Positions 1 through 18,491 are shown, counted from the first letter of the stretch. The stretch: DNA of 64,000 bases from Rhodospirillales bacterium (GCA_023898805.1 CP060260.1:849656-913655), one strand, 5' to 3'. Notes: generated by a model not told the origin, from the letters alone. Translations and numbers: made by a program.

Positions 1-1095
1 CCCTAAACCGCCGATCATGCCGACCAATCCACCGACCGAGCCGACATGTTGCGGATAATAGACAGGGATGTGCTTGTAAACCGCTGCCTTGCCAAGAGAC
101 ATAAAAAAGCCGAGCACAAAAATAAGGGCAATAAAAGCCGGCAACGTCATGCGTAACGAGAACTCGACAGGGCCGCGTATTCCCTCAACAATATAATGCG
201 TAGAAGGATAGGAAAGCAGGAACGTACACAGAACTGACACGGCAAATGTCAGGTACATGACCGAACGCGCGCCATACTTGTCGGACAGCCAGCCGCCGAC
301 CACACGGAACAGACTTGCCGGAATGGAGTACGCAGCCGCGATCATGCCTGCTGTTTTGATATCAAGACCATACGCACCAACAAGATAGCGCGGCAACCAG
401 AGTGCTAGCGCGACAAAGGCACCAAATACAAAAAAGTAGTACAGTGAAAAACGCCAGACTTGGAGATTTTTAAGCGGCTCCATTTGAAGCCATGCGCCTT
501 TGGCTTTTATATTGTTCCTCCTGCGCTCAATCAGTGCAGGATCATCACTGGTGCCAAACCAAAAAACGATTGCCGTCACAACCAGCGCCGCTGCCCAGAC
601 ATTGGCAACCATTTCCCACCCGTAAGCCACCATGACGAAGGGCGCAATAAACTTTGTAACTGCCGCACCCACGTTTCCTGCCCCAAAAATTCCAAGTGCC
701 GTGCCTTGTTTTTTTGTTTCATAGAACTTCGAGACATAGGCGATACCGACAGCAAAAGAGCCGCCGGCAATACCAACGCCAAGGGCGGCCAGCAGGAATT
801 CCGGATAAGTGCCTGCAAATGTCAGAAGCCACGTGGCGACTGCCGCAGCCAACATGACAGCGACAAAAATGATCCGGCCACCATATTGATCCGTCCATAT
901 GCCAAGAAAGATGCGGATAAGAGAACCCGTTAAAATCGGGGTCCCCGCCAAAAGCCCGAACTGCGCATCGGACAATCCAAGATTTTCTTTGATCTTGAGG
1001 CCAATGATGGAAAAGATGGTCCAAACAGCAAAACAGACGGTAAAAGAAAAGGCACTGAACACAAGCGCTCTAAGCGATTGACTGTTTTGCTGCAT
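1..1095 (-). CDS. narK: Nitrate/nitrite transporter, NarK/NNP-family MFS (3' end runs off the window)
   Basis: My own reverse translation from the ATG (cat at 1093-1095) gives MQQNSQSLRALVFSAFSFTVCFAVWTIFSIIGLKIKENLGLSDAQ..., a multi-TM protein. It contains the NNP-type glycine motif LGIFGAGNVGAAV. It is absent from the ORF track because it is open at the window edge. Confidence 0.8.
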   Translation of the reverse strand, partial: MQQNSQSLRALVFSAFSFTVCFAVWTIFSIIGLKIKENLGLSDAQFGLLAGTPILTGSLIRIFLGIWTDQYGGRIIFVAVMLAAAVATWLLTFAGTYPEFLLAALGVGIAGGSFAVGIAYVSKFYETKKQGTALGIFGAGNVGAAVTKFIAPFVMVAYGWEMVANVWAAALVVTAIVFWFGTSDDPALIERRRNNIKAKGAWLQMEPLKNLQVWRFSLYYFFVFGAFVALALWLPRYLVGAYGLDIKTAGMIAAAYSIPASLFRVVGGWLSDKYGARSVMYLTFAVSVLCTFLLSYPSTHYIVEGIRGPVEFSLRMTLPAFIALIFVLGFFMSLGKAAVYKHIPVYYPQHVGSVGGLVGMIGGLG

Positions 1096-1162
1096 AAAAA
1101 TTCTCCGAAAAAATGATTCGCTAAATGCCCCTCTTTCCTGACACCTGTTAAATCGATACAGT

Positions 1163-1176
1163 TTGATTCAAATCAA
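1163..1176. promoter_or_regulatory. FNR/CRP-type box TTGATtcaaATCAA in the divergent narK-fnr intergenic region
   Basis: Perfect TTGAT-N4-ATCAA palindrome read directly. Its centre is about 74 nt upstream of the narK ATG and about 28 nt upstream of the regulator ATG. Confidence 0.7.
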
Positions 1177-1197
1177 GATGTTGGAAATTTTGTAAAA

Positions 1198-1977
1198 ATG
1201 CCTCTCAAGTCACCGAACATTGCCGCGACGCTCAGAATGCCAAAAACAGGTGGCCATTCCGGGTTGTTCGATGGCCTCAACGAAACGAGCCTCCAGATGG
1301 TGCTTGGAAATTCCGTCCTGCAAACATACGAAAGCGGGTGTACCATCTTCCAGCAGGGCGATATGCCAACGCATGTCTATGTCGTGATCGAGGGTACATT
1401 GCGCACACTACGCAACGGCGAGGACGGTGACGAAGCAACCATCCGCATGCTGCGCCCGGGCGAAACATGCATGGAGGCCGTCATCTTCATGGGGGGGCCA
1501 TCGCCCATATCCGTGCAAGCGATAGAGGATTCAAAAGTGCTGCTTGTCCCCGCAAGCTTTATAAAAAGCCACGCGCTGCGCGACGGGCAGTTTGCCACGA
1601 ACCTTCTGCAAATCGTGACACATCACTATAAAAACGCGATGCATCAGATTGACGCTATGCAGATCAAATCACCCCTCCAGCGCATCGGCTATTTCTTTTT
1701 AGAGAAGTTTCTTGAGGCAGGAAAACCGGATGGCCTGACCCTGCCATTCAAAAAAACCATCATCGCCAATTACCTCGGCATGACGCCGGAAACGTTCTCT
1801 CGCGCGCTCAACAAAATCCGCGACATCGGCGTTGATATCGATGGTGAAAAAATCCATCTCAGCGACGCCTTCGTACTCTGCCAGTTCTGCGATGCCGACA
1901 TGGCGCATCTTTGCCCGAGACACGAAACAGCCGAATGCCCCGTGTGCCCGCTACACACAAACCGTCACAAGGCGTAG
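1198..1977 (+). CDS. Crp/Fnr-family transcriptional regulator with a C-terminal cysteine cluster
   Basis: 259 aa with a cNMP-binding-like beta-roll (IFQQGDMPTHVYVVIEGTLR) and an HTH carrying the FNR-type E--SR recognition motif (PETFSRALNKI). The last 35 aa hold five Cys (CQFCDADMAHLCPRHETAECPVCP). There is no N-terminal Cys cluster. Confidence 0.85.
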   Translation: MPLKSPNIAATLRMPKTGGHSGLFDGLNETSLQMVLGNSVLQTYESGCTIFQQGDMPTHVYVVIEGTLRTLRNGEDGDEATIRMLRPGETCMEAVIFMGGPSPISVQAIEDSKVLLVPASFIKSHALRDGQFATNLLQIVTHHYKNAMHQIDAMQIKSPLQRIGYFFLEKFLEAGKPDGLTLPFKKTIIANYLGMTPETFSRALNKIRDIGVDIDGEKIHLSDAFVLCQFCDADMAHLCPRHETAECPVCPLHTNRHKA

Positions 1978-3197
1978 GTTTCGATCACGGAACCAGCTTC
2001 AAGGCTTTTGAGCTCTTCGGGAATAACGGCCCATGCATTCATTTTCAGAAACGGACTGACCTTGAAAGATTCCTGACCATCAAGTAACGTCACGCGTTGT
2101 TGCCCATTAACATCGGCAGAAACATGCGCCTTCAAAAAATGACGTAAATCATTTTTCTTCCGAAACGACGCATCAAGCACGGCACAAGCCTTACCTTCAT
2201 CAACAACACCAAGACATGCATCTAAAAATGGCTGCACGAAAAACCGTAACCCCACAGCCGCTGATGTCGGATTCCCGGGCAATCCAAAATAAAGAGTGCC
2301 GTTTGGAAATTGCGCGAACAATACAGGCTTGCCAGGCTTGATAGCCACCTTGTGAAAAAGGATTTTTGCGCCCATGTCTTCCAGTGCCTTTTTCACAAAA
2401 TCAAAATCACCTGCCGAAACAGCTCCGCTTGAAATGATGATTTCACAACCCGCATCCAGCGCACTGGATACCGTGCGCGAATACAGCGCGGGATCGTCCC
2501 CAATGGCATGGAAGGAAACGCAATCAAGCCCCATATCCGCAAGCTTGCAAAGCGCATAAGGCAAATTGGAGTTATAGATTTTTCCTGCCTCCAGCGCACC
2601 GGAACCAGCTTCTTGCAACTCCCGCCCCGTGGCTATGAAACAAACCTTTGGCTTTTCATTTACCAAAACCTTGCCGCAACCCACAGCCGCCAATGCCATC
2701 ACATGCTCTGGCGTAAGCTTCGTACCTTTTCGGACAACGACATCACCCGCCTTGAAATCCTGCCCTCGGCGACGGATATGATCTCCCACCTTCGGTGCTT
2801 GCTGGAACGTGACGTTATTGCCGTTTCTTGCCGCCTGTTCGACAGGAACAACCGCCTCCGCCCAATCAGGGAGCATCGCTCCCGTCATGATGGCCATACA
2901 TGTCTTACTCTGAAGAAGCTGCTTTTGCGACGCATCCCCGGCCGCGATGGTTTGCGCTACATCTAAAGTAACCGGCAGCCCCTCAAAATCTGCCATTCGT
3001 ACGGCAAAACCATCCATCGCACTGTTGTCAAAAGGCTGGATATCGACACCCGCTCTCACATCTTCGGCCAGGACACGACCGCAAGCCCCGATAATGGGCA
3101 CGTCACAGCTCGACAATGGTTTGGCTGATTTTTTAAGTATTTCAAGGGCTTCAAGATAGGAAATCATCGGAACATCTTTTTTAAGAACATAAGGCAA
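1965..3197 (-). CDS. moeA: Molybdopterin molybdenumtransferase MoeA
   Basis: 410 aa with MoeA-like domain order, including DNSAMDGFAV and a GLPGNPTSA-type motif. The track start at 3197 is TTG, and ATG at 3167 (MISYLEALEIL) is an alternative start. Confidence 0.85.
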   Translation of the reverse strand: MPYVLKKDVPMISYLEALEILKKSAKPLSSCDVPIIGACGRVLAEDVRAGVDIQPFDNSAMDGFAVRMADFEGLPVTLDVAQTIAAGDASQKQLLQSKTCMAIMTGAMLPDWAEAVVPVEQAARNGNNVTFQQAPKVGDHIRRRGQDFKAGDVVVRKGTKLTPEHVMALAAVGCGKVLVNEKPKVCFIATGRELQEAGSGALEAGKIYNSNLPYALCKLADMGLDCVSFHAIGDDPALYSRTVSSALDAGCEIIISSGAVSAGDFDFVKKALEDMGAKILFHKVAIKPGKPVLFAQFPNGTLYFGLPGNPTSAAVGLRFFVQPFLDACLGVVDEGKACAVLDASFRKKNDLRHFLKAHVSADVNGQQRVTLLDGQESFKVSPFLKMNAWAVIPEELKSLEAGSVIETYAL

Positions 3198-3226
3198 GCC
3201 TTATCACGATAACTTTTTCAGCTCTA

Positions 3227-3240
3227 TTGATCTGAATCAA
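3227..3240. promoter_or_regulatory. FNR/CRP-type box TTGATctgaATCAA between moeA and the porin gene
   Basis: Perfect TTGAT-N4-ATCAA palindrome read directly, centred about 70 nt upstream of the porin ATG. Confidence 0.7.
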
Positions 3241-3302
3241 TTTGAGGGATGCCTTTACCGAGGAAACTCCCCCCAGGTTAATTCAGAGCAAAGGCATATT
3301 TC

Positions 3303-4523
3303 ATGAAAAATAAAATTCTTCTTCTAACCGCAGCTTTCTTAGCCATACCGTCCACACTGCACGCCGAAGATGCAAAAACAGGCATCACCCCTTTCGGGCA
3401 AGTACGCCTTCGCTATGAGAACGTCGATCAGGACGGACTGACCAAAGACGCGGACGCCCTGACAGCCCGCATCAACGCAGGCCTCAAAACCGATAAGATC
3501 CATGACTTTCAGGGTCTGGTTGAGCTACAGGCTATTCAACACCTCTCTCAGGACAACTTTAACGACGGCGTCAACGGCAAAGCCACATACCCCACGGTAT
3601 CCGACCCGCAGAACGCCGAAATCAACCAGCTCTGGCTCGCATGGTCTGGCCTCCCAGGCGTTGAAGCTAAAGTAGGCCGTCAGGCCGTCAACTGGGATAA
3701 CCAGCGCTTTGTAGGCTCCGTTGATTGGCGCCAGAATGACCAGACGCTGGACTCCGCCCTGCTGTCTTATACGGGGATCGAAAAACTGACCCTGCAATAC
3801 GGCTATCTCTGGAACATCAACCGCATCACGGGCGGTGACCACACATTGGGCGACATTGAATCAAACAGCCACATCGCCCGCGCCAGCTACGCTCTTGCCC
3901 CGTGGCTCACGGCAACCGCCTACGGCCTATCTCTTGACTTCGACAACTGGGCTACAAAATCATCCCGCACCTATGGCCTGCGTTTGACCGGCGATGTGCC
4001 CGTCACGGAAGGCTGGACTGGTTTTTACGAACTCGAAGCCGCAAAACAGAACGATGCGCACAACAACACCGCCAATTATAGCGAAGGGTACTTCCTCGTA
4101 TCCCCGGGCATCAAAGGTTATGGCCTGAATATCCAGCCGGGCTACGAGAAACTGGGCGGTAACGGCACGTCATCCTTCCAGACACCGCTGGCCACACTGC
4201 ACAAATTCAACGGCTGGGCCGATAAATTTCTGGATACACCCGCAAACGGTCTTGAAGACACGTTTATAAACGTATCCTACACCCTGCCTGAAAGCGTAGC
4301 ACCGCTAAACGGTATTGTCCTAAGCGCCGCATGGCATGACTATAATGCCGACCGCACGAGCACGGATTACGGCACGGAAGCCGATTTCTCGGTAAAAAAA
4401 TCCTTCAAAGGGCCTGATTATACCAAAGGGATCGACGTGATACTCAAGTACGCCGACTACAACGCCGATGGCCTGTACACCGACACGCAAAAAGCGTGGG
4501 CACAGGTCGATGTCAAATTCTAG
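3303..4523 (+). CDS. Outer-membrane beta-barrel porin (alginate-export/OprO-like putative anion porin)
   Basis: 406 aa with a signal peptide (MKNKILLLTAAFLAIPSTLHA). It shows alternating beta-strand patterning rich in Y/G/N/D and a C-terminal aromatic residue (VDVKF). The family-level call is tentative. Confidence 0.65.
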   Translation: MKNKILLLTAAFLAIPSTLHAEDAKTGITPFGQVRLRYENVDQDGLTKDADALTARINAGLKTDKIHDFQGLVELQAIQHLSQDNFNDGVNGKATYPTVSDPQNAEINQLWLAWSGLPGVEAKVGRQAVNWDNQRFVGSVDWRQNDQTLDSALLSYTGIEKLTLQYGYLWNINRITGGDHTLGDIESNSHIARASYALAPWLTATAYGLSLDFDNWATKSSRTYGLRLTGDVPVTEGWTGFYELEAAKQNDAHNNTANYSEGYFLVSPGIKGYGLNIQPGYEKLGGNGTSSFQTPLATLHKFNGWADKFLDTPANGLEDTFINVSYTLPESVAPLNGIVLSAAWHDYNADRTSTDYGTEADFSVKKSFKGPDYTKGIDVILKYADYNADGLYTDTQKAWAQVDVKF

Positions 4524-4532
4524 GAGGACGAC

Positions 4533-4709
4533 ATGACCCAGAACGCAAAAAAAGATGAACCACAAAACCCTATGGCCATCTGGTGGAAAACTCTGGAGCA
4601 AACACAACAGATGATGCAAGACAACACGCGCAAGACGATGCTGCAAATCCTCGAAAACCAGAAGCGCATGGCCATGCTCTATTTCGGATCATCACAAAAA
4701 GAAGACTAA
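4533..4709 (+). CDS. Small hypothetical protein (58 aa), below the ORF-track length cutoff
   Basis: An AGGAGG Shine-Dalgarno (4522-4527) lies 5 nt before the ATG. The translation is MTQNAKKDEPQNPMAIWWKTLEQTQQMMQDNTRKTMLQILENQKRMAMLYFGSSQKED. A strong terminator follows directly. Confidence 0.45.
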   Translation: MTQNAKKDEPQNPMAIWWKTLEQTQQMMQDNTRKTMLQILENQKRMAMLYFGSSQKED

Positions 4710-4724
4710 AAGGGATTGATATCG

Positions 4725-4754
4725 AAAAGCCCCTCGTATGAGGGGCTTTTTTTG
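4725..4754 (+). terminator. Rho-independent terminator after the porin/small-ORF unit
   Basis: aaaagcccctc-gtat-gaggggctttt forms an 11-bp stem followed by a T-run. Confidence 0.8.
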
Positions 4755-4764
4755 TTGGCATTTT

Positions 4765-4778
4765 TTGACCCACATCAA
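4765..4778. promoter_or_regulatory. FNR-like box TTGACccacATCAA upstream of nrdD
   Basis: One mismatch to TTGAT-N4-ATCAA. It lies about 120 nt upstream of the nrdD ATG. Confidence 0.55.
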
Positions 4779-4784
4779 AAATAA

Positions 4785-4832
4785 ACACAATATCTAGTGC
4801 AGCATTACAAGTGTCACCACATCATCTTGTGG
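4785..4832. promoter_or_regulatory. Tandem NrdR boxes upstream of nrdDG
   Basis: Box 1, acacaatatctagtgc (4785-4800), matches the published NrdR consensus acaCwAtATaTwGtgt at 14 of 16 positions. Box 2, ccacatcatcttgtgg (4817-4832), matches at 11 of 16. The centres are 32 bp apart. Confidence 0.6.
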
Positions 4833-4892
4833 TTTCTTGCGGGTTTCCCCTCAACAAAAAAAACCAGTGTTTTCAAAAGATTGGAGCATTCC

Positions 4893-6878
4893 ATGCCTAC
4901 CGTACCGTCCGCCCTTCGCAAAGAATCATCCCCTGATAACCTCGCCACGCTCTTCACCGGCACCAAGGTGGATAGCAGCGCGGCCGTAGGCGAATACATC
5001 ACAGGAACGGACTGGCGAATCAACGCGAACGCCAACACGGGTTATTCCAACGCAGGCATGATCAACAACGTGGCAGGCAAGGTGATTGCCAATTTCTGGC
5101 TCGACTCGGTTTACAGCGCGGAAGAAGGTCTCGCCCACCGGCAGGCCGATATCCACATCCACGATCTCGATTGCCTGACGGGGTATTGCGCAGGTTGGTC
5201 ACTCCGCGCCCTTCTCAATGAAGGTTTCAATGGCGTAGGCGGGCGCGTGTCTTCCCGCCCGCCCCGCCATTTCCGCGAGGCGCTCGGGCAGATGAGCAAC
5301 TTTTTAGGCATCCTGCAATCCGAATGGGCAGGGGCGCAGGCATTCTCAAGCTTCGATACCTATCTCGCGCCTTACGTATTTCTGGATAACCTGTCTTTCA
5401 AGGATGTCAAAAAGGCCATCCGCCAGTTTGTTTACAATCTCAACGTGCCCGCGCGCTGGGGACAGTCGCCGTTTACGAACATCACGCTTGATATCACGGT
5501 GCCGGAGGATCTTCAAAACCAGTTCCCCGGCTGCCGAGACCAGCATTTGTTCAAAGGTATCAACAACACCGAAATGCTGGGCCGCGCACAATCGCGCGAC
5601 ATGGGCATCCGCTCCCTTGAAGATCTATGCTTCAAACATTTTGCGCCCGAGATGGAGATGATCAACATCGCCTACTACGAAGTGATGACGGAAGGGGATT
5701 CGACCGGCCAGCCCTTCACCTTTCCCATCCCGACCGTCAACATCACCGAGGATTTTAACTGGGATAGCAAGGTCGCCCAAGCCATTTTTGAAAACACGGC
5801 CAAAGTCGGCTCATCTTACTTCCAGAATTTTGTTGGCAGCCAATGGATGCGCAACGAAAAGGGCGAACGCGTCCGCAACCCCGAGGCATATTCCCCGGGT
5901 GCCGTGCGTTCCATGTGCTGCCGCCTTCAGCTTGATTTGCGCGAACTTTTGCGCCGTGGCAACGGGCTGTTTGGCTCCGCCGAAATGACAGGCTCACTCG
6001 GCGTTGTCACCATCAACATGGCAAGGCTTGGCCACCGTTTCAAAGGTGACAGGGAAGGCATGATGCGCGAGCTCGACAGGCTCATGGATATCTCGCGCTC
6101 CACGCTGGAAAAGAAACGCGGCTTCGTGCAAACCATGTACGATCGCGGCCTTTACCCCTACACCGCACGTTATTTGCCGTTCCTGCGCAACCACTTCAGC
6201 ACAATCGGCATCAACGGTATGAACGAAATGATCCGCAATTTCACAGGCGACGCTTACGACATCACCGATGATAGAGGCATTGATTTCGCGCTCGCCATTC
6301 TCGACCACATGCGCAATAAAATGCGTCAGTATCAGGAAGAAACAGGCAATCTCTACAACCTTGAGGCCACACCGGCGGAAGGCACGACTTACCGTTTTGC
6401 GAAGGAAGATAAAAGGCGTTTTCCTGACATCCTCCAGTCCGGCTCGGGCGAGAATATCTATTACACAAACTCGTCACAAATCCCCGTCGATCATACGGAT
6501 GACCCGTTCGAGGCGCTGGAGCTGCAAAACAAACTGCAATGCAAATATACGGGCGGCACGGTTCTGCATTTATATATGAGCGAAAAACTCTCCTGCGCAG
6601 ATGCCTGCCGTAGTTTTGTCAAAAAAGTCATTGAAAATTATCAGCTTCCATACATCACGGTCACACCGGTATTTTCGACCTGCGAAACACACGGCTACCT
6701 CAAGGGTGAACAACCTGAATGCCCGCACTGCCAGAAAAAGACCAATGTCTGGACGCGCGTCATGGGGTATTTCCGTCCCGTGGCCAGCTTCAACACCGGC
6801 AAAAAAGGCGAGCACGCCCAACGTAAACATTTCTGCGAGGATCGCATCCAATCCGCCGACCTGTTTTCGATGCAATGA
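4893..6878 (+). CDS. nrdD: Anaerobic ribonucleoside-triphosphate reductase (class III)
   Basis: The C-terminus has a Cys cluster (...CETHGYLKGEQPECPHC...) and the glycyl-radical motif TRVMGYFRPV. The start was moved to ATG 4893, which has GGAG 6 nt upstream. The track start at 4797 would overlap the NrdR boxes. Confidence 0.9.
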   Translation: MPTVPSALRKESSPDNLATLFTGTKVDSSAAVGEYITGTDWRINANANTGYSNAGMINNVAGKVIANFWLDSVYSAEEGLAHRQADIHIHDLDCLTGYCAGWSLRALLNEGFNGVGGRVSSRPPRHFREALGQMSNFLGILQSEWAGAQAFSSFDTYLAPYVFLDNLSFKDVKKAIRQFVYNLNVPARWGQSPFTNITLDITVPEDLQNQFPGCRDQHLFKGINNTEMLGRAQSRDMGIRSLEDLCFKHFAPEMEMINIAYYEVMTEGDSTGQPFTFPIPTVNITEDFNWDSKVAQAIFENTAKVGSSYFQNFVGSQWMRNEKGERVRNPEAYSPGAVRSMCCRLQLDLRELLRRGNGLFGSAEMTGSLGVVTINMARLGHRFKGDREGMMRELDRLMDISRSTLEKKRGFVQTMYDRGLYPYTARYLPFLRNHFSTIGINGMNEMIRNFTGDAYDITDDRGIDFALAILDHMRNKMRQYQEETGNLYNLEATPAEGTTYRFAKEDKRRFPDILQSGSGENIYYTNSSQIPVDHTDDPFEALELQNKLQCKYTGGTVLHLYMSEKLSCADACRSFVKKVIENYQLPYITVTPVFSTCETHGYLKGEQPECPHCQKKTNVWTRVMGYFRPVASFNTGKKGEHAQRKHFCEDRIQSADLFSMQ

Positions 6879-7591
6879 GCACGGTTCTACGCCATAAACC
6901 ACAAGGCATTACGTTGCCCGTTTACAACGTAACGCCATTTACCATGCTGGATTACCCTGGCAAAACCGCCTGCATTATTTGGTTTTCCGGTTGCAACATG
7001 CGCTGCCCGTATTGCCACAATCCGCAAATCGTCAAAGGCAAAGGCCGCGGTGATATTGCACAGGTCATGGATTTTTTAAGGCGGCGTCAGGGCCTTCTTG
7101 ATGGCGTTGTGCTCTCGGGCGGTGAATGTACGCTTTATCCTGACATGCCCGCGCTTGTGCGCGATATCAAGGCACTGGGCTACGCCGTCAAAATCGATAC
7201 CAACGGCACGCGCCCCGATGTGCTCCTGCCTTTATTGGATGCGAAGCTAATTGATTACATCGCGCTTGATTACAAAGCTCCACGTGCAAAATTCCATGCC
7301 ACAACGGGCATGAACCAGTTTGAGGTATTCTCAAAAACGCTTTCTTATCTCTGCCACGACGGTGTACCTTTTGAAGTCCGCACAACTATCCACTCTGATT
7401 TCCTGAACGAGAGTGACATCAACGCAATCATGGATGACCTCGCGGCACGCAAGTACCACGGTACCTACTATATCCAGAATTTCACTGGCACGGGCAGTCC
7501 CACATTAGCACCGCTTACAGCCCACAAACCGCTAGACTGGTCGGTCATCCATCCTAGAAACACCTTCAAACTGGAATTCAGAAATTTTTAG
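6875..7591 (+). CDS. nrdG: Anaerobic RNR activating protein (radical SAM)
   Basis: Carries the CNMRCPYCHN radical-SAM motif. Its ATG overlaps the nrdD stop (ATGA). Confidence 0.9.
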   Translation: MSTVLRHKPQGITLPVYNVTPFTMLDYPGKTACIIWFSGCNMRCPYCHNPQIVKGKGRGDIAQVMDFLRRRQGLLDGVVLSGGECTLYPDMPALVRDIKALGYAVKIDTNGTRPDVLLPLLDAKLIDYIALDYKAPRAKFHATTGMNQFEVFSKTLSYLCHDGVPFEVRTTIHSDFLNESDINAIMDDLAARKYHGTYYIQNFTGTGSPTLAPLTAHKPLDWSVIHPRNTFKLEFRNF

Positions 7592-7778
7592 CCTGCCCAG
7601 TTAACGTTTTCAGGATGGTCTTCGGCTCAAGATCAACAATATCGGCGATTTCCATCAGCTCTATAACGTCCAGGCGGCGTTCGCCGCCCTCCACTTTCGC
7701 CACAAAAGATTGAGGTTTGCCGATTCTTACAGCCAGTTCTTGCTGGGTCATCCAAGGTGAGGCAAAGGCTAGCGCCAT
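7578..7778 (-). pseudogene. XRE-family HTH regulator fragment (N-terminal helix missing)
   Basis: TQQELAVRIGKPQSFVAKVEGGERRLDVIELMEIADIV is the helix 2-5 part of an XRE HTH. Only about 9 unrelated codons precede it. It overlaps the recombinase remnant in antisense. Confidence 0.5.
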
Positions 7779-8796
7779 GCTTCAGGCCTGCATCCTGCGC
7801 AAAATGGCACGAGAAGGCGATGCCGAAATCCAAGACCTCGCCCCGCAGGATCAGGAAATCCTGGCGGAGTTTTTGAGCAAGATTTTAACCTACAAAGATG
7901 GCCGGACGGTTGGCGGTAAATCATTTTCGCGGGGTGCCTTGTACGCACTACTCTCAAACCCGATATATATCGGGCAGATCCGGCATAAGAACAAAACTTA
8001 TGATGGGCAGCACGAAGGCATTATTCCTCAGGATCTGTGGGCGGCAGTGCAGCAAAAGCTGAATGAACAGGCATCGATTTATAAAGGGCAGAAAATCTCC
8101 AGAGAGGTCAATTTACTCAAAGGCATTCTGTTCGATGCGCAAGGAACTCCTTATACGCCCGGATACACCGCCAAAGGCAAAAAGCAATACCGGTATTATG
8201 TCAGCCAGAATCTGATCCAGATGCGGGATCACCCGGATGGTTTACTGGGGAGACTTCCAGCACATGAAATTGAAGCAACAGTTGAAAGTGTCTTGCGGCA
8301 CAGTTTATGCAGCCGGTCCGGTGTCGTGGAATTGCTGGGGATCTGTCTGGATCGTGATATTGAAAGCGTTCAGAAGATTGTTGAAGGGCAAGCACTGCTC
8401 CAGATGCCTCGCTTTGTTCAAGGAATTACCCAGCGTATTACCGTTCAAGCCGAGAGCCTTGAGATCGAGGTGAATGTTCAAGAACTCTGCGCCGCACTTT
8501 CTCAAACCACCGAAACAAAAATCAGCTCACCAAAAGAAACCGCCCTTATCGTTGGCGCCTACAATACGCGGCGGGCTAAGAAGGGCGCACTCGTCATAGA
8601 ACCGGAAAAGCCTGATCGGGATATTTTTGATCTGCCGCCTGACCAGATTAAGAAACTGGTGCAGGGATTTATCTGGCGGGATGAGCATTTCCAAGGTCTT
8701 ACCATACGACAAATCGCCGAACGTGAAGGTCTCTCAGACTCTCATGTCGGCAAGCAGATCTTCGCCACATTCGAACTTGGCCAAATGGCCGCCTGA
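7717..8796 (+). pseudogene. Large serine recombinase remnant lacking the N-terminal resolvase catalytic domain
   Basis: The recombinase domain is present (GGKSFSRGALYALLSNPIYIGQIRHKNKTYDGQHEGIIPQDLW, LLKGILFDAQGTPYTPGYTAKGKKQYRYYVSQ). No Ser-containing resolvase domain lies upstream. It sits next to the tRNA 3' end. Confidence 0.65.
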
Positions 8797-8958
8797 TAAA
8801 TCCGTCGAACAGAAAATTGGCTATCAGAGAAAACCGAGGAGAATGCCCCGGTTTTTTTAATTCTCAGTGCTCGGCAGAAGCTAAGCCGCTCGAAAAGAGC
8901 GCGGAACTGCGGGATATTTGGGGAGTATTTCTCACCGTTCGGCAAACCGGTGACTAGA

Positions 8959-9033
8959 TGGCTGGGGCGCCAGGATTCGAACCTGGGAATGGCGGTACCA
9001 AAAACCGCTGCCTTACCGCTTGGCGACGCCCCA
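8959..9033 (-). tRNA. tRNA-Gln (anticodon UUG)
   Basis: The reverse complement is TGGGGCGTCGCCAAGCGGTAAGGCAGCGGTTTTTGGTACCGCCATTCCCAGGTTCGAATCCTGGCGCCCCAGCCA. It has a 7-bp acceptor stem with U1:A72 and an anticodon arm GCGGT/TTTTGGT/ACCGC. A T-arm GGTTCGAATCC and an encoded CCA are also present. Confidence 0.9.
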
Positions 9034-9276
9034 CCGGGGAAAACGGGGCAGACAATACCGGCCCCATGCGCCTTGCGCAAGCCGAAATATGAGCAGGCCA
9101 CGGCGCGCAAGCACTCTGGCAGAACCAAAGGGCAGGGCCGGCCAAGCCCTGTGGATAAATGCGGCGCTTTTTTGTGGCGCTATTTTACAAAATATGCAAA
9201 AACCCTTGGACCAGCCACGCAAGAAAATCGGACGTAACGACGTAACGACGTGATGACCACGAACGAGGGAAACACC

Positions 9277-11157
9277 ATGCGCCCCACGAACGCCGCGCCT
9301 GCGGCCAAGCCGGAATCGACACCCCGCGCCGCGACGGCCGCATCGCCGACACCGGCGGCCAACGCGCGACCCTTCCCGGTTTCCAACGCCAACATGGCCG
9401 CGACCGATCAGGTGCGCGCCGCGCTCGACACGCTGGGCATCAAACTGATCAAGTCCGAGGCCGAACGCGACGTCCTGAAAAAACTGGTCGAGGAAACCCG
9501 TTCGACCCAGACCCGGCTTGAACGCGAATTGCTGGAAAACCGCAAGGAGCTGGCGGAAACCCGCCGCAAGATGGAGGACCAGCGTCAGGATTCCGAACTC
9601 ACCCGCAACCGCCACGAGCGGCTGGAGGAAAAACTGCGCGAGGCGCAGGCAAACAATCTGAAGATCGCCCGCAAGATCGAGGCCGACGACCAAAAACGCG
9701 CCCGTATCCAGCGACGTATGGAGCGCCTTGAACGCGTGGCGCAGGAAGCGCAATCCGCACTGCAATCCCGCGCCATGGTGCTGCTGACCGATCAAAGCCT
9801 GGCGGAACAATCCGGCCTGCCGCGCATCGCCGCGTCCGGTGAAGTTTTGCCCGTCGCCGCGCCTGCGCGCACCGCGCACGCATCATCGTTGATTGGTTCC
9901 GGCACCGTCATCGATGCCGGAGAAACGGAAGAACTGCCGTGGTGGAAAAAACCGCTGAACCTGAACGCGTCCGCAGCGCTTGGCGCGCTGGTCTTCGCAC
10001 TCGGCCTTGGCTGGGTCATCTCGTACAACGTGAACGCGAGCCAGACCGCCGTCGCGGTGATGGCCGACGGCAGCCTTGCGCGCATCGACCTTAAAACCGG
10101 CACGCTGCAACCTTTGCAACTTAAACTCAAAACACTCGATCAATCGACCGCCGCACCCGTCGCGCGCGTCAGCACTGATGGTGCACCCTTGCCCGCATCG
10201 GCCAAACCCGACGATTCCGCCGTATCTGCCACCGCACCGGCCGCCGCGCCCGAACGCGATCCAAGCCTGACCGGCGCCCTCAAGGAGCTGGAGGACAAGG
10301 CCTATGCCGGCCAGCCCGAGGCCGAACACGATCTGGCCGCGATCTACACTGCCGGCTCCGGCGTGAAACAGGATTACACACGCGCCGCTTATTGGTTCCG
10401 TCAGGCGGCGGATGCCGGCATCGCCAACGCCGCGTACAATCTCGGCGTCCTCAACCATCAGGGTCTGGGTGTCGACAAGAACATCGACCGCGCACTCGAT
10501 TGGTACCGCATCGCCGCGCTCGAAGGCCACCCCGAGGCGCAATACAACCTCGGCATCGCCTATATCGAAGGCATCGGCACCAAATACAACCCGCAGCTTG
10601 CCGCCGGCTTCTTCCAGAAAGCCGCGCTCTCCGGCATTAACGAGGCCGCGTACAATCTCGGCCTGATCCTTGAAAACGGCCTGTTGGCCGAACCGAAACC
10701 GAATCAGGCGCTGATCTGGTATCGCGTCGGCGCGCAGGGCGGATCAACCGAGGCGCGCAACGCCCTCGACCAACTGGCCAGCCGTCTGGGCCTTTCGCCT
10801 GACAAGGCGGGCTTTTTGCCCGACGGCACCTCGCTTGCCAAACTGGTGCATAAACCTGAAAGCGCCCAACCCGGCAGCAATTCCGACGCGACGGCCGAAC
10901 TAGCGCGCCTGATGCCGGATCTGGCCGAGATGATTCCCGATACCGACCAGTTGATTACCGCGCAGGTACAAGAACAGCTGACCCGCCGCGACATCTATGA
11001 CGGGCCGGAGGACGGCGCCGCCAGCCCCAAGACCGCCGATGCGATCAAATCCTATGAACGTCGCAACGACATCAAGGTGGATGGAAAGGCCAACGCCGAT
11101 TTACTGATGAAAATGCTGCGTCAAAGCGTCGTCGAGGATTCGGCCAAAGCGAAATAA
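9277..11157 (+). CDS. PodJ-like architecture: coiled-coil, one TM segment, Sel1 repeats and a C-terminal peptidoglycan-binding domain
   Basis: The N-terminal part is charged heptad-rich (RLERELLENRKELAETRRKMEDQRQ...). A TM segment follows (ALGALVFALGLGWVISY). At least 4 Sel1 repeats are present (A.YNLG....G.GV..N...A..WY..AA). The C-terminus is PG_binding_1-like (DGPEDGAASPKTADAIKSYERRNDIKVDGKA). The start is uncertain: GTG 9250, ATG 9253 or ATG 9277, and the last has GAGGGA upstream. Confidence 0.7.
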   Translation: MRPTNAAPAAKPESTPRAATAASPTPAANARPFPVSNANMAATDQVRAALDTLGIKLIKSEAERDVLKKLVEETRSTQTRLERELLENRKELAETRRKMEDQRQDSELTRNRHERLEEKLREAQANNLKIARKIEADDQKRARIQRRMERLERVAQEAQSALQSRAMVLLTDQSLAEQSGLPRIAASGEVLPVAAPARTAHASSLIGSGTVIDAGETEELPWWKKPLNLNASAALGALVFALGLGWVISYNVNASQTAVAVMADGSLARIDLKTGTLQPLQLKLKTLDQSTAAPVARVSTDGAPLPASAKPDDSAVSATAPAAAPERDPSLTGALKELEDKAYAGQPEAEHDLAAIYTAGSGVKQDYTRAAYWFRQAADAGIANAAYNLGVLNHQGLGVDKNIDRALDWYRIAALEGHPEAQYNLGIAYIEGIGTKYNPQLAAGFFQKAALSGINEAAYNLGLILENGLLAEPKPNQALIWYRVGAQGGSTEARNALDQLASRLGLSPDKAGFLPDGTSLAKLVHKPESAQPGSNSDATAELARLMPDLAEMIPDTDQLITAQVQEQLTRRDIYDGPEDGAASPKTADAIKSYERRNDIKVDGKANADLLMKMLRQSVVEDSAKAK

Positions 11158-11163
11158 AACCCG

Positions 11164-12000
11164 CTATAAAGTCCGTCCGGCGCGCACCCACCACTCCGGA
11201 TACGCCGCCGCGATCACCGCGGCCGCGCGCGCGGCCATGTCCCCATCATCGAAAACGCCGAAACACGCACTACCCGATCCGGTCATGCGCGCCGCCGCCG
11301 CACCTTGCGCTTGCAATGCGTCCAGCACCGTACCGATGACGGGGGCAATGCCGCGCGCCGCCGGTTCAAGGTCGTTGCGCCAATCTGCCGGATTCAGATC
11401 GTTTTCCGGGACGATTGAAACCGCACCTTCGTATGCGGCGAACACCGCCCCGGTCGCCAGTACGATTCCGGGCCAGACCACCACGACGTCAAGTGGCGCA
11501 ACCGTTACCGGCTCGACGATCTCGCCGATGCCGGTGACACGCGCGGCGCGGTTCATCAGACAAAACGGAAGTTCGGCCCCGATCTCAAGACCCACCCGGG
11601 CAAGTACGGCGTCATCGAACGGTTTCCCCCAATGCGCATTCACCACCCGCATCGCCGCCGCCGCATCCGCGGAACCGGCGCCAAGCCCCGCCCCGGCAGG
11701 GCAATTCTTGCCCAGTATCATGGCCAATGCGGCCGCACGTCCAGCCATACGCTCCAGCGCGCGGACCGCGCGGGCGACCAGATTATCCTCACCACCCGGC
11801 GCGTGTACGGCAAAAAGACCTTCGACGGTAAGCGTGAATTCTGGCGCGGGCACCACATCCAGCGTATCGCCCAACGTGGTCGGCACGATCAGGGAACGCA
11901 GCGTATGATACCCGTCTTCCCGCCGCCCAGTAACGGCAAGGGAAAGGTTCAACTTCGCAGGCGCGGAAAACCGGGATTTCATCAACGCCTTGTTTACCAT
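11164..12000 (-). CDS. ispE: 4-diphosphocytidyl-2-C-methyl-D-erythritol kinase
   Basis: The N-terminus has APAKLNLSLAVTGRREDGYH and there is a GHMP-kinase motif (PAGAGLGAGSADAAA). The start could be 12018, 12000 or 11982. Confidence 0.85.
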   Translation of the reverse strand: MVNKALMKSRFSAPAKLNLSLAVTGRREDGYHTLRSLIVPTTLGDTLDVVPAPEFTLTVEGLFAVHAPGGEDNLVARAVRALERMAGRAAALAMILGKNCPAGAGLGAGSADAAAAMRVVNAHWGKPFDDAVLARVGLEIGAELPFCLMNRAARVTGIGEIVEPVTVAPLDVVVVWPGIVLATGAVFAAYEGAVSIVPENDLNPADWRNDLEPAARGIAPVIGTVLDALQAQGAAAARMTGSGSACFGVFDDGDMAARAAAVIAAAYPEWWVRAGRTL

Positions 12001-12020
12001 TGCCCGGTAAAATAACAAGC

Positions 12021-12323
12021 ATGACGCTCGACACGCTGATCGCCCGCTTTCAGGACAAACTTAAAACCCATCCCGATTTCCGGGCCACGGTGAAATTCGA
12101 TCTTGGTGCCGATGGCATCCTTCTGGTCGACTCGACCAGCCGCCCCGGCAAGGTGGCGGCCCAGGACGGCGAGGCGCAATTGACCCTGACCCTCGCCAAG
12201 GACTTGCTGCTGGGTTTTATGGCCGGAACCAAGGATCCGAACGTAGCTTATCTGACCGGTAAGCTGAAGGTCAAAGGCCCGATGGGCCTTGCGATGAAAC
12301 TCAACGCGCTTTTGGAAGATTGA
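12021..12323 (+). CDS. SCP2 sterol-carrier-like domain protein
   Basis: About 100 aa ending GKLKVKGPMGLAMKLNALL, a typical SCP2 C-terminus. Confidence 0.7.
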   Translation: MTLDTLIARFQDKLKTHPDFRATVKFDLGADGILLVDSTSRPGKVAAQDGEAQLTLTLAKDLLLGFMAGTKDPNVAYLTGKLKVKGPMGLAMKLNALLED

Positions 12324-13032
12324 AAAAGCGCGGATGCACCGCCAGCGCGTAAAACAATGCGGCCAGCACCGCCGCGGCGCCGAACCAGAAAAACGCATAT
12401 TGCCTATGCGGAACGTCCATCCCTTCAAGCGGCTGAACCCGGCGTAGCGCCGGATCTTCGGAAAGGCTCGATGTTTCCATGAAAAACACCAATCGCGCCG
12501 GATACTCAACGCCGTTGGCCGCAGCGATCGCATCGATATCCAACTTTCGCCACGACTGCTGATCGCCCGCGACCGGCGTTTCGGACACGGATTCACCGGC
12601 ACGCAGCGCACCGGTAAGCGTGGCCATGCCGAACGGCGCCTGCGCCGACAGCATCACCGGCGCCATCGTTTCCGGCACCCAGCCGCGTATGGCCAGAATT
12701 GTGATTTTTTGATTGGCTAGCATGAAGGGCGTCGCGATCCAGTAACCGGACATGCCGCTATGCACCCGCGGGCCGATCTTGATATTCGCGTTCTGTTTCC
12801 ATACCCCGCGCAGATACCCGCGACGCAGGTCGTTGGCCGGATCATCGACCGCATCCATCAGCGAGATTTTGCTGGCATTCACGTTTTGCTGCGCGGCCTG
12901 CGCGGCGGCCAGACCATGCTCTTGTGCGATCAGGTCGATCTGCACGAAGCCAAGATGGACAAAATACGCGACCACAAGGCCGACCACCAGCGCCGCCGTC
13001 CAGAACCCCGTATTCGTTCGCCTTAAAACCAT
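12301..13032 (-). CDS. SURF1-family cytochrome oxidase assembly protein
   Basis: N- and C-terminal TM segments flank a periplasmic domain containing ILAIRGWVPE and HRQYAFFWFGAAAVL motifs. Confidence 0.75.
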   Translation of the reverse strand: MVLRRTNTGFWTAALVVGLVVAYFVHLGFVQIDLIAQEHGLAAAQAAQQNVNASKISLMDAVDDPANDLRRGYLRGVWKQNANIKIGPRVHSGMSGYWIATPFMLANQKITILAIRGWVPETMAPVMLSAQAPFGMATLTGALRAGESVSETPVAGDQQSWRKLDIDAIAAANGVEYPARLVFFMETSSLSEDPALRRVQPLEGMDVPHRQYAFFWFGAAAVLAALFYALAVHPRFFNLPKAR

Positions 13033-13132
13033 AATCTAAACCGTTCTCCTGCGTTCTGGGTCGCACCCATCGCTTATTTTTAGGTGATGCGCCCCGGCCT
13101 GACCAGACTTGAATTTCAGCATGTCCTGCGCC

Positions 13133-13840
13133 TCATCGCAGTTCATAAGGCAAAAGCATCCCGTGCCCGAACGCCGCGCCCTTTTTCATGAATCCGCCCA
13201 TAGCCGGCGCGATTTCACCGTAAATCGCCACGCCCGCACCGGTCACGCGGGCCCATTTCTGATTCCCGTAATCGAAATGCCACCATTGATAAGGATCCTG
13301 AACAAAGCCTGCCTGCGTCATCGCGATGGTCAGGGTCCGCAAGTGCGGCTGGTTCCTGTGGTCGTAATCCATGCCCTGCCCGGGATCCCAGCCCAAATAG
13401 GGTGACCCCATGCCCAGCTCGGCGTTTTCATGCGTATCGATCAACGTGACGTCGAGCGCGCCACCCGTCGTATGTGGCGGGATCAAACCCTCGTCGCTGC
13501 CCTGAACGACGCGCAAATCGGCCAGCGCCTCGTTTTCTTCCTTCGTGCGTTCCGGGTCCTGCTCGGCCAGCGTTTTCCAGCACGCGGCATACAGCCGGTC
13601 CTGCACCGCACGCGGCCGCCATGCGTCGAAGACCTTGAGCCGTAAACCTTGCGCGTCCAACACGTCATGCTGGATCTGCTCCAGCTTCGCGGCCACGCTT
13701 ACGCGCGCCCATAATTGCGGATTGGCGGTATATCCCTTGCGAAATGCCATCGGCTCAAGCGCGATCGGATACTGCGCCAGATCGACCATCGGCTCGTCGC
13801 ATTCCTGAATCGGGATTGATGAATAATCCGGGACTCTCAT
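13133..13840 (-). CDS. D-alanyl-D-alanine dipeptidase (VanX/DdpX-like, M15D)
   Basis: Contains LKVFDAWRPRAVQ, HTTGGALDVTLID and WWHFDYG motifs (Zn ligands H/D/H). Confidence 0.8.
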   Translation of the reverse strand: MRVPDYSSIPIQECDEPMVDLAQYPIALEPMAFRKGYTANPQLWARVSVAAKLEQIQHDVLDAQGLRLKVFDAWRPRAVQDRLYAACWKTLAEQDPERTKEENEALADLRVVQGSDEGLIPPHTTGGALDVTLIDTHENAELGMGSPYLGWDPGQGMDYDHRNQPHLRTLTIAMTQAGFVQDPYQWWHFDYGNQKWARVTGAGVAIYGEIAPAMGGFMKKGAAFGHGMLLPYELR

Positions 13841-13895
13841 CGCATTTCCTTTGATAAAGACGATCGGAAATCTTGTCCAACGTCACCCGGCGTAT

Positions 13896-14660
13896 TCATG
13901 CAAATCTTTCCACAGCCAGCGGGCCAAAGCTTTGCGTGGTCGGCATGATCTCGATCGCGTTGACGTTGACATGCGGCGGCAGTGTCGCGGCCCAGACCAC
14001 GCTTTCGGCGATGTCTTCGGCCACAAGTGGCGTGGTGTTTGCGTATACCTTGGCCGCCTTGTCGGTATCGCCTTTGAACCGAGCAAGGCTGAAACGCGTT
14101 TCCACCATTCCCGGTTCGATATTGGTGACGCGCACGCCGGTGCCCGGCAGGTCGGCGCGCAAATTGAACGAGAACTGACGCACGAACGCCTTGCACGCGC
14201 CATAGACATTGCCCCCGGGATAGGCATAACTGCCCGCTATCGACCCGATATTGATGATATGCCCGCGCTTGCGCGCCACCATCCGCGGCAGCAAAAGCCG
14301 CGTTACGCGGATCAACGAACGCACGTTCATGTCGACCATCGCGTCCCAATCGGCAAGATCGGCGTTCTGCGCTGCATCAAGGCCGAGCGCCCCGCCCGCG
14401 TTGTTGATCAAAAGATCGACCTCGCGAAAATGGTCCGGAATGGAATCGATGCCGCGTTCGATCCCTGTTTGGTCGGTCATGTCGAAAACGGTGCCGTAAA
14501 CCTCGCCCTCGATCGAATCGACCAACGCCGCAACCTTGTCCGCGTCGCGCCCGTGCACGACCAGACGCGATCCCAGCGCCGCGAAACGCTGCGCAAAAGC
14601 CTGCCCGAAATCGCCGGTCGCACCGGTAATCATCACGCATTCAGGGATGTACGAATTCAT
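13896..14660 (-). CDS. Short-chain dehydrogenase/reductase (YdfG-like)
   Basis: Contains an ITGATGDFG Rossmann motif, NNAG, and a Y..CK catalytic motif (YGACKAFV). Confidence 0.85.
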   Translation of the reverse strand: MNSYIPECVMITGATGDFGQAFAQRFAALGSRLVVHGRDADKVAALVDSIEGEVYGTVFDMTDQTGIERGIDSIPDHFREVDLLINNAGGALGLDAAQNADLADWDAMVDMNVRSLIRVTRLLLPRMVARKRGHIINIGSIAGSYAYPGGNVYGACKAFVRQFSFNLRADLPGTGVRVTNIEPGMVETRFSLARFKGDTDKAAKVYANTTPLVAEDIAESVVWAATLPPHVNVNAIEIMPTTQSFGPLAVERFA

Positions 14661-14698
14661 GGGCCCTCCATCGTCGCCTGAAGCCTAAAGATTTCATC

Positions 14699-14740
14699 CA
14701 AAAAAGAAAAGCCGCCCGGAGCGCATGCGCCGGACGGCCT
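14699..14740 (-). terminator. Rho-independent terminator after the OMP gene
   Basis: The minus strand reads ggccgtccggcgcatgcgctccgggcggc followed by ttttctttttt. Confidence 0.7.
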
Positions 14741-14771
14741 GAAAACCAGTCTGTAAAACCGATCAGCCTGA

Positions 14772-15404
14772 TCAATTAAAGCTGTACTTCAACCCGGCCA
14801 TGAGCGCGTGGTTGTGGTACGTGCCCTTGTTGCCATAGCCCATATTGACTTTTTCGGTCGAGAAGTAACGGTATTCGCCGAACAGCGAAAGATCGCTTTC
14901 CAACGCGTAATCCGCACCCAGAATGCCCTGATACGCGAAGGCGTTGTCCTTGCCGTCCGAAATGATCGTACCCGCGGTGCTGTAATTGTCGGTTTTGACA
15001 TGCGCGATACCGATACCGGCGCCGATATAAGGCGTGACTGGCGTGGCGGTCGGGATGTCGTAATAAGCGTTCGCCATCACCGCGGTCGCGGTCACCTTGC
15101 CACCCGGCGACGCAAAAGGCCCGGTATTGTCCGAAAGGCCGTCCACCTTGTTGGAACGATAGGAAAGCTCGATTTCCGTACGTACGTTGTTGCCGTAATC
15201 GTAGCCAACCGCACCGGACAGGCCGTAGCCCTCTTTCAGGTTCGATTTGCTCGCCCCTGTGATTTTCTGGTCCTGCGTATGGTTCCAGCCGGCGGAACCG
15301 GAAATGTACAGACCTTGCTGCCAGCCATCCTGCGCCCGTGCGGCGGGAAGAACGGCGGCGAAACCGGCAACGCCAGCGACCAATGCCAGAAGATATTTTT
15401 TCAT
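14772..15404 (-). CDS. Small outer-membrane beta-barrel protein (OmpA-beta-barrel/OmpW-like)
   Basis: Has a signal peptide (MKKYLLALVAGVAGFAAVLPAARA), alternating aromatic beta-strand patterning and a C-terminal YSF. Confidence 0.75.
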   Translation of the reverse strand: MKKYLLALVAGVAGFAAVLPAARAQDGWQQGLYISGSAGWNHTQDQKITGASKSNLKEGYGLSGAVGYDYGNNVRTEIELSYRSNKVDGLSDNTGPFASPGGKVTATAVMANAYYDIPTATPVTPYIGAGIGIAHVKTDNYSTAGTIISDGKDNAFAYQGILGADYALESDLSLFGEYRYFSTEKVNMGYGNKGTYHNHALMAGLKYSFN

Positions 15405-15576
15405 TTCGTTGACCCCTTTTAAGATAATTGACCGGCGAAATTATAGCCCCGCGAACAGACATGAAACCAGAACTTTTTTAGCCCTGGCAAGCGACACGCC
15501 CCCTTGCGCGCCTGTTGCGCCCGCGCGGCGGATACGCTAAAACCCGCCTGACCCCAACAATTCCAAAGGTTTTACG

Positions 15577-17223: not shown

Positions 17224-17227
17224 CGCC

Positions 17228-17617: not shown

Positions 17618-17660
17618 TACAACGGATTGAAATAACCGTTGCCCGCGTTAGGGTAACGCT

Positions 17661-18449: not shown

Positions 18450-18491
18450 GGCGTAACGGCCTGTGACTGGACGCCGGAAAACGGCTTTTGA

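Follow-up and report, generated by a model that had tools for sequence, protein, structure and literature searches.

The window analyzed here, a stretch of 64,000 nucleotides from a Rhodospirillales genome (GCA_023898805.1; CP060260.1, positions 849656–913655), opens within a genomic island of low GC content that carries genes for nitrate respiration. Positions 1–8964 are the right-hand 8,964 bp of this 26,015-bp element (51.6% GC, compared with 60.9% for the host), both ends of which (attL and attR) were located; contigs 100% identical to it were found in at least four independent assemblies. The island ends at an intact tRNA-Gln(UUG) gene (8959–9033, minus strand; identified with ARAGORN, Rfam score 58.7 bits), which is the integration target and the sole tRNA gene in the window. 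Since this gene lies on the minus strand, its 3′ end (8959) is the one turned towards the low-GC DNA. The first host gene (9277–11157, plus strand; assigned with Pfam) encodes a Sel1-repeat/peptidoglycan-binding protein (sel1) and forms a conserved right flank, with orthologs showing 65–68% identity and the same synteny in loci L105–L110 and L150 of relatives.

The island genes within the window begin with narK1 (1–1095, minus strand), encoding a nitrate/nitrite transporter of the major facilitator superfamily (MFS) and of the NarK family TIGR00886. The gene runs off the left end, so that only the N-terminal 365 codons are translated from the window; the full 431-aa gene is present in contigs L001 and L021. 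It is followed by a Crp/Fnr-family regulator gene (1198–1977, plus strand; NCBI start at 1237; PF00027 and PF13545), whose top NCBIfam matches are FtrB, FixK and Fnr, every one of them below the cut-off. The product has a cysteine-rich C-terminus (CQFCx7Cx8CxxC; tail CQFCDADMAHLCPRHETAECPVCPLH), which we take to resemble the C-terminal iron-sulphur site of Bacillus-type Fnr and not the N-terminal site of Escherichia coli Fnr. The remaining genes are moeA (1965–3197, minus strand; domains MoeA_N, MoCF_biosynth and MoeA_C), encoding a molybdopterin molybdotransferase, a gene for an outer-membrane porin of the Alginate_exp family (3303–4523, plus strand; PF13372 at 30 bits), nrdD for the class III anaerobic ribonucleotide reductase (4893–6878, plus strand; 661-aa gene call; PF13597, 578.6 bits; longest open reading frame [ORF] from GTG at 4797) and nrdG for its radical-SAM activase (6875–7591, plus strand; PF04055 and PF13353). 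nrdG overlaps the downstream end of nrdD, the catalytic subunit and the adjacent activase forming an NrdDG pair. An earlier interpretation made from the nucleotide sequence without database searches (the sequence-only reading) had listed exactly these genes, and translation together with Pfam and NCBIfam searches identified all of them.

A variant of this region was observed in contig L002 (Logan SRR23493592_737), which carries a 386-bp deletion in nrdD (window positions 5767–6152) and a 1.16-kb deletion extending from nrdG into the recombinase remnant described below (7139–8303). The deletion junctions show microhomology of 2 and 5 bp. This may be a sign that a part of the population is losing nrdDG by decay.

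Between nrdG and the tRNA gene lie three fragments of a degraded backbone. The first (7578–7756, minus strand) is the 3′ remnant of an XRE-family helix-turn-helix (HTH) gene, which encodes 94 aa when intact, overlaps nrdG by 14 bp, and is cut at 7750–7756; the sequences of L001 and L017 match the window without a difference as far as 7750/7756, beyond which they contain the full gene. The second (7751/7757–7872, plus strand) is a filler of approximately 116–121 bp derived from a phage DUF5681 gene, which marks a backbone deletion: it shares 72.6–73.5% identity with the DUF5681 genes that L014 and L019 carry, and is absent from L017. The third (7873–8796, plus strand) comprises the C-terminal 307 codons of a large serine recombinase (LSR) gene, 99.8–100% identical to the intact gene of L009 and L017 and 85% identical at the DNA level to that of L012. 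The ORF containing this remnant (7717–8796) stops 163 bp from the 3′ end of the tRNA gene, the distance given in the sequence-only reading.

Only PF07508 was detected in the LSR fragment (E = 2.7e-10); a 91%-identical relative matches phrog_95, annotated as an integrase (4e-91). The catalytic Resolvase domain (PF00239) is missing from the window copy, in which the first ~191 codons have been replaced, and is present in the L009/L017 allele and in homologs P0020–P0139, with the conserved motif YTRKSTEE. No zinc-ribbon Pfam family was found in the window fragment or in the precomputed domains of the homologs. Judged by these matches, the recombinase is a decayed phage-type LSR. The assertion that the locus shows classical integration geometry thus held in that an integrase remnant occupies the tRNA-proximal end; the enzyme itself is an LSR and not the tyrosine integrase that this description implied.

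The undamaged form of the backbone was recovered from L009 and L017, contigs that represent this organism in two further metagenome assemblies and are 99.8–100% identical to the window over the region of overlap. ENA contig L009 is 99.99% identical to window positions 7872–21157, and its upstream part encodes the missing Resolvase domain, while L017, from a third sample, joins L001 and L009 at 100% identity. The intact order in L017 is nrdG, the XRE gene (94 aa), an Mrr-like nuclease gene, a truncated parB, a DUF2924 gene, the LSR gene, 163 bp of intergenic DNA, tRNA-Gln and sel1. In this arrangement the LSR gene closes the element, and the DUF2924 gene precedes it. Relative to this arrangement the window lacks 3,241 bp, comprising the XRE N-terminus, the Mrr-like nuclease gene, parB, the DUF2924 gene and the catalytic half of the LSR. 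The phage families represented among the backbone neighbors are ParB/methyltransferase phrog_498, phrog_26239, terminase phrog_38, phrog_11806 for the DUF2924 protein, and phrog_95, an integrase family. The remnant state is a peculiarity of the window genome, and an intact integrase allele is present in the same population. A sister assembly (JACKIY010000001.1; GCA_020638235.1) contains 252 bp of the DUF5681 filler and has suffered a larger loss of the recombinase gene. Three allelic backbone states were thus observed in one organism: those of the window (7751–8005), of L008 (8478–8735) and of L017 (5048–8288, intact).

Analysis of the base composition revealed a sharp boundary. Positions 1–8964 have a GC content of 51%, compared with 61% for the rest of the window; in 1-kb windows the values are 0.496–0.559 over positions 1–9000 and mostly 0.58–0.69 over 9001–64000, and 200-bp windows place the step between 8800 and 9000, in agreement with the claim that the DNA to the left of the tRNA-Gln 3′ end is richer in AT. 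The codon usage check proposed with that claim also gave a difference: the GC content of the 22 island genes is 0.515 (40 host genes, 0.616), and the GC content at third codon positions (GC3) is 0.554 in the island genes (n = 22) versus 0.751 in the host genes (n = 40; Mann-Whitney p = 3.5e-10). The tetranucleotide L1 distance between host and island DNA is 0.40 (minimum 0.29), versus 0.16 (maximum 0.215) within host DNA. The discontinuity in GC, GC3 and tetranucleotide usage at 8959–8964 is sharp and well past chance.

Two further regions of deviating composition were noted on the host side. An isolated patch of 44.8% GC (41001–42000) in 61%-GC surroundings contains an ORF of 240 aa (41068–41790; GC3 0.45) without a Pfam match, and a run of ORFs at 48058–53317 (778, 246, 170 and 465 aa), also without Pfam matches, has a GC content of 0.54–0.59, somewhat below that of its neighborhood.

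The attachment (att) sites were defined by comparison with related elements. The element-side arm of attR (P arm; 8797–8957, plus strand), ending ...CCGGTGACTAG, is conserved downstream of the recombinase genes of L012, L014, L016 and L019. It is followed by the core ATGGCTG (8958–8964), which overlaps the last 6 nt (CAGCCA) of tRNA-Gln and recurs in attL, in attR and at the P-O-P′ junctions found in L012 and L110. The DNA of L012 is 85% identical to window positions 7873–8964, and the homology stops at 8964, 6 nt inside the tRNA gene. In L016 and L019, whose LSRs are 81% identical, other tRNA-Gln genes directly adjoin this arm (…AAACCGGTGACTAG-ATGGCTG). A divergent arrangement was seen in L014 (12284–12323; GCA_051715325.1), where the att core is followed by a degenerate 39-nt copy of the tRNA-Gln 3′ half, which does not fold as a tRNA, and then by unrelated AT-rich genes; L016 encodes a recombinase identical to that of L014 and adjoining a proper tRNA-Gln gene.

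The opposite end, attL, was located 17.05 kb beyond the left edge of the window, in the intergenic region between moeB and a BMT5-like gene, and reads, in window orientation, …AGCTTCAGACTA-ATGGCTG-TGTGCGCAGTCACGCTCGCACTATTCTCAGG…, with the host arm …CAGACTA directly preceding the core. Its inner arm matches the sequence 3′ of the core in L012 (27/30 and 28/36 nt), and when both strands of 82.5 kb were searched with the L012 arm, no other match scored as high as attL (score 55, versus 25.2 ± 2.1 for shuffled sequences). With attL and attR located, the island extends from window-equivalent position −17,051 to 8,964, i.e. 26,015 bp, or approximately 29.1 kb with an intact backbone. The prediction that the left end and any att repeat lie outside the window was correct. 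Less straightforward was the suggestion that the tRNA-Gln 3′ segment would be repeated upstream. No second copy of this segment (20–40 nt, up to 25% mismatches) was found in the window or in the 18.7 kb upstream; the repeat that is present is a 12/13-bp imperfect direct repeat around the 7-bp core, GACTA-ATGGCTG at −17,062 to −17,051 (attL) and GACTAGATGGCTG at 8952–8964 (attR). Such a short repeat, in place of a duplicated tRNA 3′ segment, follows from the integrase being of the serine type. The P-O-P′ junctions contain dyads (GTGACT-N16-AGTCAC in L012 and TTATGTA-N14-TACATAA in L110), both centered on CT|GT of the core, which would suit the att sites of a serine integrase, and from the dyad center the crossover dinucleotide would be TG at 8963–8964.

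Most of the core cargo, namely the full nar operon and the complete molybdenum-cofactor (Moco) pathway, lies outside the window, and narK1 alone of the nar cluster reaches into it. The left part of the island (window-equivalent −17,051 to 0) was read from L021 and L022 in a leftward walk to −18.5 kb, and cargo genes were assigned with Pfam and NCBIfam. The nar cluster has the order narK1K2GHJI, with the Pfam families Nitr_red_alph_N/Molybdopterin, Nitr_red_bet_C, Nitrate_red_del and Nitrate_red_gam and two MFS genes. Leftward past narI follow ppiC (encoding a PpiC-type isomerase), nnrS, a second Crp/Fnr gene, moaA, moaCB, moaD, moaE, mobA, an ORF of 112 aa, tauE and moeB, with a GC content of 45–56% throughout this block. 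The island therefore bears the Moco genes moaA, moaCB, moaD, moaE, mobA, moeA and moeB, and MoaA, MoaC/MoaB, MoaD, MoaE, MoeB, MoeA and MobA constitute the complete route to the bis-molybdopterin guanine dinucleotide cofactor, according to established knowledge of the pathway. Gene content points to a self-sufficient module for anaerobic growth on nitrate, which would be its phenotype and its benefit to the host.

Among the island genes called in L001, L017 and L021, no capsid, portal, tail or lysis domains, as expected of a prophage, were found, and no relaxase or type IV secretion/coupling Pfam families, as expected of an integrative conjugative element. The possibility that the recombinase belongs to a separate prophage remnant between the nar block and the tRNA gene was considered and rejected, since L017 bridges nrdG and the intact LSR gene by 3.2 kb and attL lies beyond moeB.

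Diverged blocks with the same gene order (74–77% DNA identity, ~50% GC) were identified on contigs with lower-GC flanks. In one of them, L185 (Logan SRR33128028_17433, positions 10973–12489; 74% DNA identity), genes for an HTH protein and a ParB/N6_N4-methyltransferase come after moeB, with a truncated DUF5681 gene between them; here the same cargo is again joined to the same element backbone in another lineage. No attL-like sequences were found beside the diverged nar-moa blocks of L185–L188. The nearest named homologs of NarI come from alphaproteobacterial MAGs (metagenome-assembled genomes). Given these homologs and the lower-GC flanks of the diverged blocks, the donor was probably another alphaproteobacterium of lower GC content. 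A search of the plasmid database revealed no relative of the island, the sole match being 88 bp in nrdD.

Orthologous loci were sought by a JGI scan with the flanking Sel1 protein, which yielded distant relatives (sel1 65–68% identical) sharing the order tRNA-Gln (minus strand), sel1, ispE, SURF1, SDR and ettA. A scan of genome contigs with IspE and a JGI metagenome scan with a host-specific 26-mer gave no match. In L106, L107, L108, L110 and L150 the tRNA-Gln–sel1 synteny is kept and none of the cargo genes (no nar, moa or nrd) is present. The DNA to the left of the tRNA gene differs among them: esterase, SDR, DUF3833 and CFA-synthase genes in L107, RecQ and polysaccharide genes in L150, and, in L110, a low-GC insert of 7.5 kb that is bounded by the same pair of repeats. 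L110 also retains the left flank of the island, namely the BMT5-like protein (63.6% aa identity) and intergenic DNA conserved up to GACTAATGGCT, and the far end of its insert is GACTAGATGGCTG followed by tRNA-Gln. This insert (within L110 positions 1–8230; JGI Ga0209066_10000303) contains a scrap of the LSR C-terminus and an internal P-O-P′ junction at 1034, which make it a tandem array, and encodes two giant EF-hand-repeat proteins (1046 and 1099 aa) in DNA of 44–49% GC. Going by these flanks and repeats, the attB of the island is occupied by different cargo in L110. The nar-moa-nrd block is thus absent at this tRNA gene in the relatives, which, with the compositional step and the end of homology at 8964, bears out the proposal that it was acquired horizontally and ends at the tRNA-Gln 3′ end.

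A related arrangement was observed in L012/L025 (positions 11722–19000; MAG UWPOB_MICAV1, JAFLCW010000001.1). The core next to a 91%-identical LSR is followed there by a P′-type arm and no tRNA gene, and then by genes for a porin (51.5% identical to that of the window), ribH, ribB, a flavohaemoglobin gene, a gene for an Rrf2/NsrR-like regulator, nrdG and nrdD (NrdD 83% aa identity to the window protein). This segment appears to be a second island of this family, whose cargo relates to nitrosative stress and anaerobic life.

On the observed boundaries, arms, genes, alleles and absence from relatives, we propose that the island entered as a 26-kb integration at tRNA-Gln mediated by its own LSR, and assign this reading a probability of roughly 0.87. 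The LSR would have joined an attP of the form …GGTGACTAG-ATGGCTG-TGTGCGCAGTCAC… to an attB overlapping the CCA end of the tRNA gene, the predicted unrecombined sequences being …AGCTTCAGACTAATGGCTGGGGCGCCAGG… (attB) and …CCGGTGACTAGATGGCTGTGTGCGCAGTCAC… (attP). As the 7-bp core is identical in attP and attB, tRNA-Gln would remain intact. Deletions have taken out 3.2 kb of the backbone and left the phage DUF5681 scrap and both att sites. With the catalytic half of the LSR and the DUF2924 gene deleted, the island can no longer excise by itself.

Several observations weigh against this proposal. No empty attB was seen within the species, the best comparison, L110, being a relative with another insert, and the P-O-P′ junction of L012 is apparently a tandem array, read as such from limited flank. 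The BMT5-like and AlkB-like genes outside attL likewise have a low GC content (0.49), so that no GC step was seen at the left end within 1.5 kb, and more foreign DNA may lie beyond attL. In addition, the nearest nar-moa blocks are only 74–77% identical in DNA, and with neither capsid nor conjugation nor relaxase genes in the L001, L017 and L021 gene calls, no transfer route is evident. The BMT5-like methyltransferase and AlkB-like dioxygenase genes themselves (L021 19295–20514; window-equivalent about −17,175 to −18,394) may be either native or an older insertion, although the BMT5-like gene is kept as a flank in L110.

The alternatives account for the data less well. It is unlikely that the locus is composite, the nar-moa-nrd block and the LSR module having arrived separately at a tRNA-Gln hot spot and the junction between them having been lost later. 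Tandem arrays with internal P-O-P′ junctions do occur in L110 and apparently in L012, the DUF5681 filler indicates a backbone that was once larger and has been rearranged, and the backbone differs among three assemblies of the same organism; however, neither the 26 kb nor the most intact allele, L017, yielded an internal att-like site, and the 14-bp overlap of nrdG with the XRE gene leaves no space for a junction. The closest LSR relative, moreover, has an attP arm of the type seen in the inner arm of attL, and the nar-moa block of L185 (74% DNA identity) again stands beside ParB/methyltransferase and DUF5681 backbone genes.

The absence of all 22 cargo genes from relatives in which both flanks are conserved makes it very improbable that the low-GC block is ancestral chromosome of atypical composition, with only a prophage remnant (7751–8964) being foreign. 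The low GC content of the genes past attL and the affiliation of the nearest named NarI homologs with other Alphaproteobacteria would suit such an origin, but attL is located at the far side of the block and not beside the recombinase, and GC3 and tetranucleotide usage strongly differ from those of 55 kb of host DNA. The least probable explanation is a chimera, in which a 51%-GC contig of another organism was joined to a 61%-GC genome at a shared tRNA gene during assembly or binning. The source is indeed a MAG, and two Logan contigs built from short reads have an end at the tRNA gene or within it (L011 starts at 8959 and L010 at 8988). Nevertheless, each junction is spanned in four assemblies: attR in the largest contig of the MAG (1.94 Mb), JACKIY010000001.1, ENA k141_101565 and Logan SRR23493592_737, and attL at 100% identity. 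ENA and Logan assemblies of several other samples contain contigs 100% identical to the low-GC block and to the host flank, and the left host flank is orthologous to that of L110. Since both junctions are spanned by independent NCBI, ENA and Logan assemblies, an assembly chimera is very unlikely.

Integration of the island by its own LSR is thus the preferred reading, and the distribution of related recombinases was surveyed in 80 genome loci (L025–L104), the tRNA count being made on the 65 of them whose downstream flank measured 800 bp or more. The family is large, with proteins of ~515 aa, and a DUF2924 gene is directly upstream of the LSR gene in 77/80 loci. A tRNA gene on the opposite strand is located 163–659 bp after the LSR stop codon in 39 of the 65 loci (Ser 16, Gln 6, Arg 4, Tyr 4, Met 4, Thr 3, Lys 1, Ala 1), and a same-strand tRNA gene in none of them (0/65). 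A small element in Methylocella silvestris TVC has a 25-nt tRNA-Gln 3′ repeat on its far side. Related elements contain terminase, ParB/methyltransferase and DUF5681 genes and no capsid genes within 10 kb, which makes a phage-satellite lifestyle possible; a scan of IMG/VR with the att arm gave no match.

It is tentatively suggested, as a possibility we rate well below even odds, that these DUF2924-partnered LSRs form a large and apparently little described clade of Alphaproteobacteria and Acidobacteriota that systematically targets the CCA-proximal 3′ ends of tRNA and tmRNA genes via a ~7-bp core, and moves terminase-bearing, capsid-less, satellite-like elements, tandem arrays and metabolic modules, including the nitrate-respiration, Moco and anaerobic ribonucleotide reductase kit. 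No published description of the island, or of tRNA-end targeting as a trait of this LSR family, was found, an absence that is weak evidence.

The acquisition described here, by a small-genome alphaproteobacterium, is well supported and fairly ordinary, tRNA-integrated genomic islands being a familiar type of element. Less usual is that the integrase is of the serine type and that the core, at the CCA end, is very short. A single 26-kb unit combines transport, enzyme, cofactor synthesis, regulation and DNA-precursor synthesis for anoxic life, and since all these functions are in one unit, a single integration could make an aerobe a nitrate respirer. This bears on how denitrification potential is deduced from wastewater-community MAGs, a setting in which binning often drops islands of atypical composition. 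The three states of backbone decay in one population offer a snapshot of a mobile island becoming fixed, and a clade of serine integrases whose tRNA-end targets are predictable and conserved, and whose cores are very short, may suit genome engineering of Alphaproteobacteria.

As regards cargo, a comparison can be made with Thermus thermophilus, in which the nitrate-respiration conjugative element (NCE), a nar cluster capable of transfer, turns an aerobe into a facultative nitrate respirer; it moves by conjugation with a megaplasmid or chromosomal segment. To our knowledge, the NCE has no serine integrase and no tRNA target, and does not bundle a Moco pathway and nrdDG in one 26-kb unit.

As regards the integrase, the closest relative from a cultivated phage is the LSR ("large subunit") of Acidithiobacillus caldus phage AcaML1 (51% identity over the N-terminal 70% of the query), whose attB has been reported at srrA, with 10-bp direct repeats (PMC3826726). 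AcaML1 is a complete phage of 59 kb, unlike the present island, which has no virion genes, contains 22 metabolic and regulatory genes and is targeted to tRNA-Gln. We take srrA to be the tmRNA gene, with a tRNA-like 3′ end, and on that assumption the AcaML1 site is a precedent for the targeting of tRNA-like 3′ ends by the LSR clade. The same gene pair, DUF2924 followed by a recombinase, is found in Wolbachia phage WO (PMC10299305). The WO recombinase is 45% identical to the present LSR over the catalytic and Recombinase domains, and a further likeness to the WO module is the proximity of ParB/methyltransferase and terminase genes in elements related to the island. WO phages are full phages that integrate in protein-coding or intergenic sites and are not known to use tRNA genes; unlike theirs, the cargo of the present element is respiratory.

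In its overall plan, the island most readily recalls the tRNA islands with tyrosine (P4-type) integrases, with which it shares an insertion point at the 3′ end of a tRNA gene that is left intact, a tRNA-proximal integrase gene, deviant GC content, adaptive cargo and flanking repeats. It differs from them in that its integrase is an LSR encoded by a gene reading towards the tRNA, and in that a core of ~7 bp within a 12/13-bp imperfect repeat takes the place of their 20–80-bp duplicated tRNA segment.

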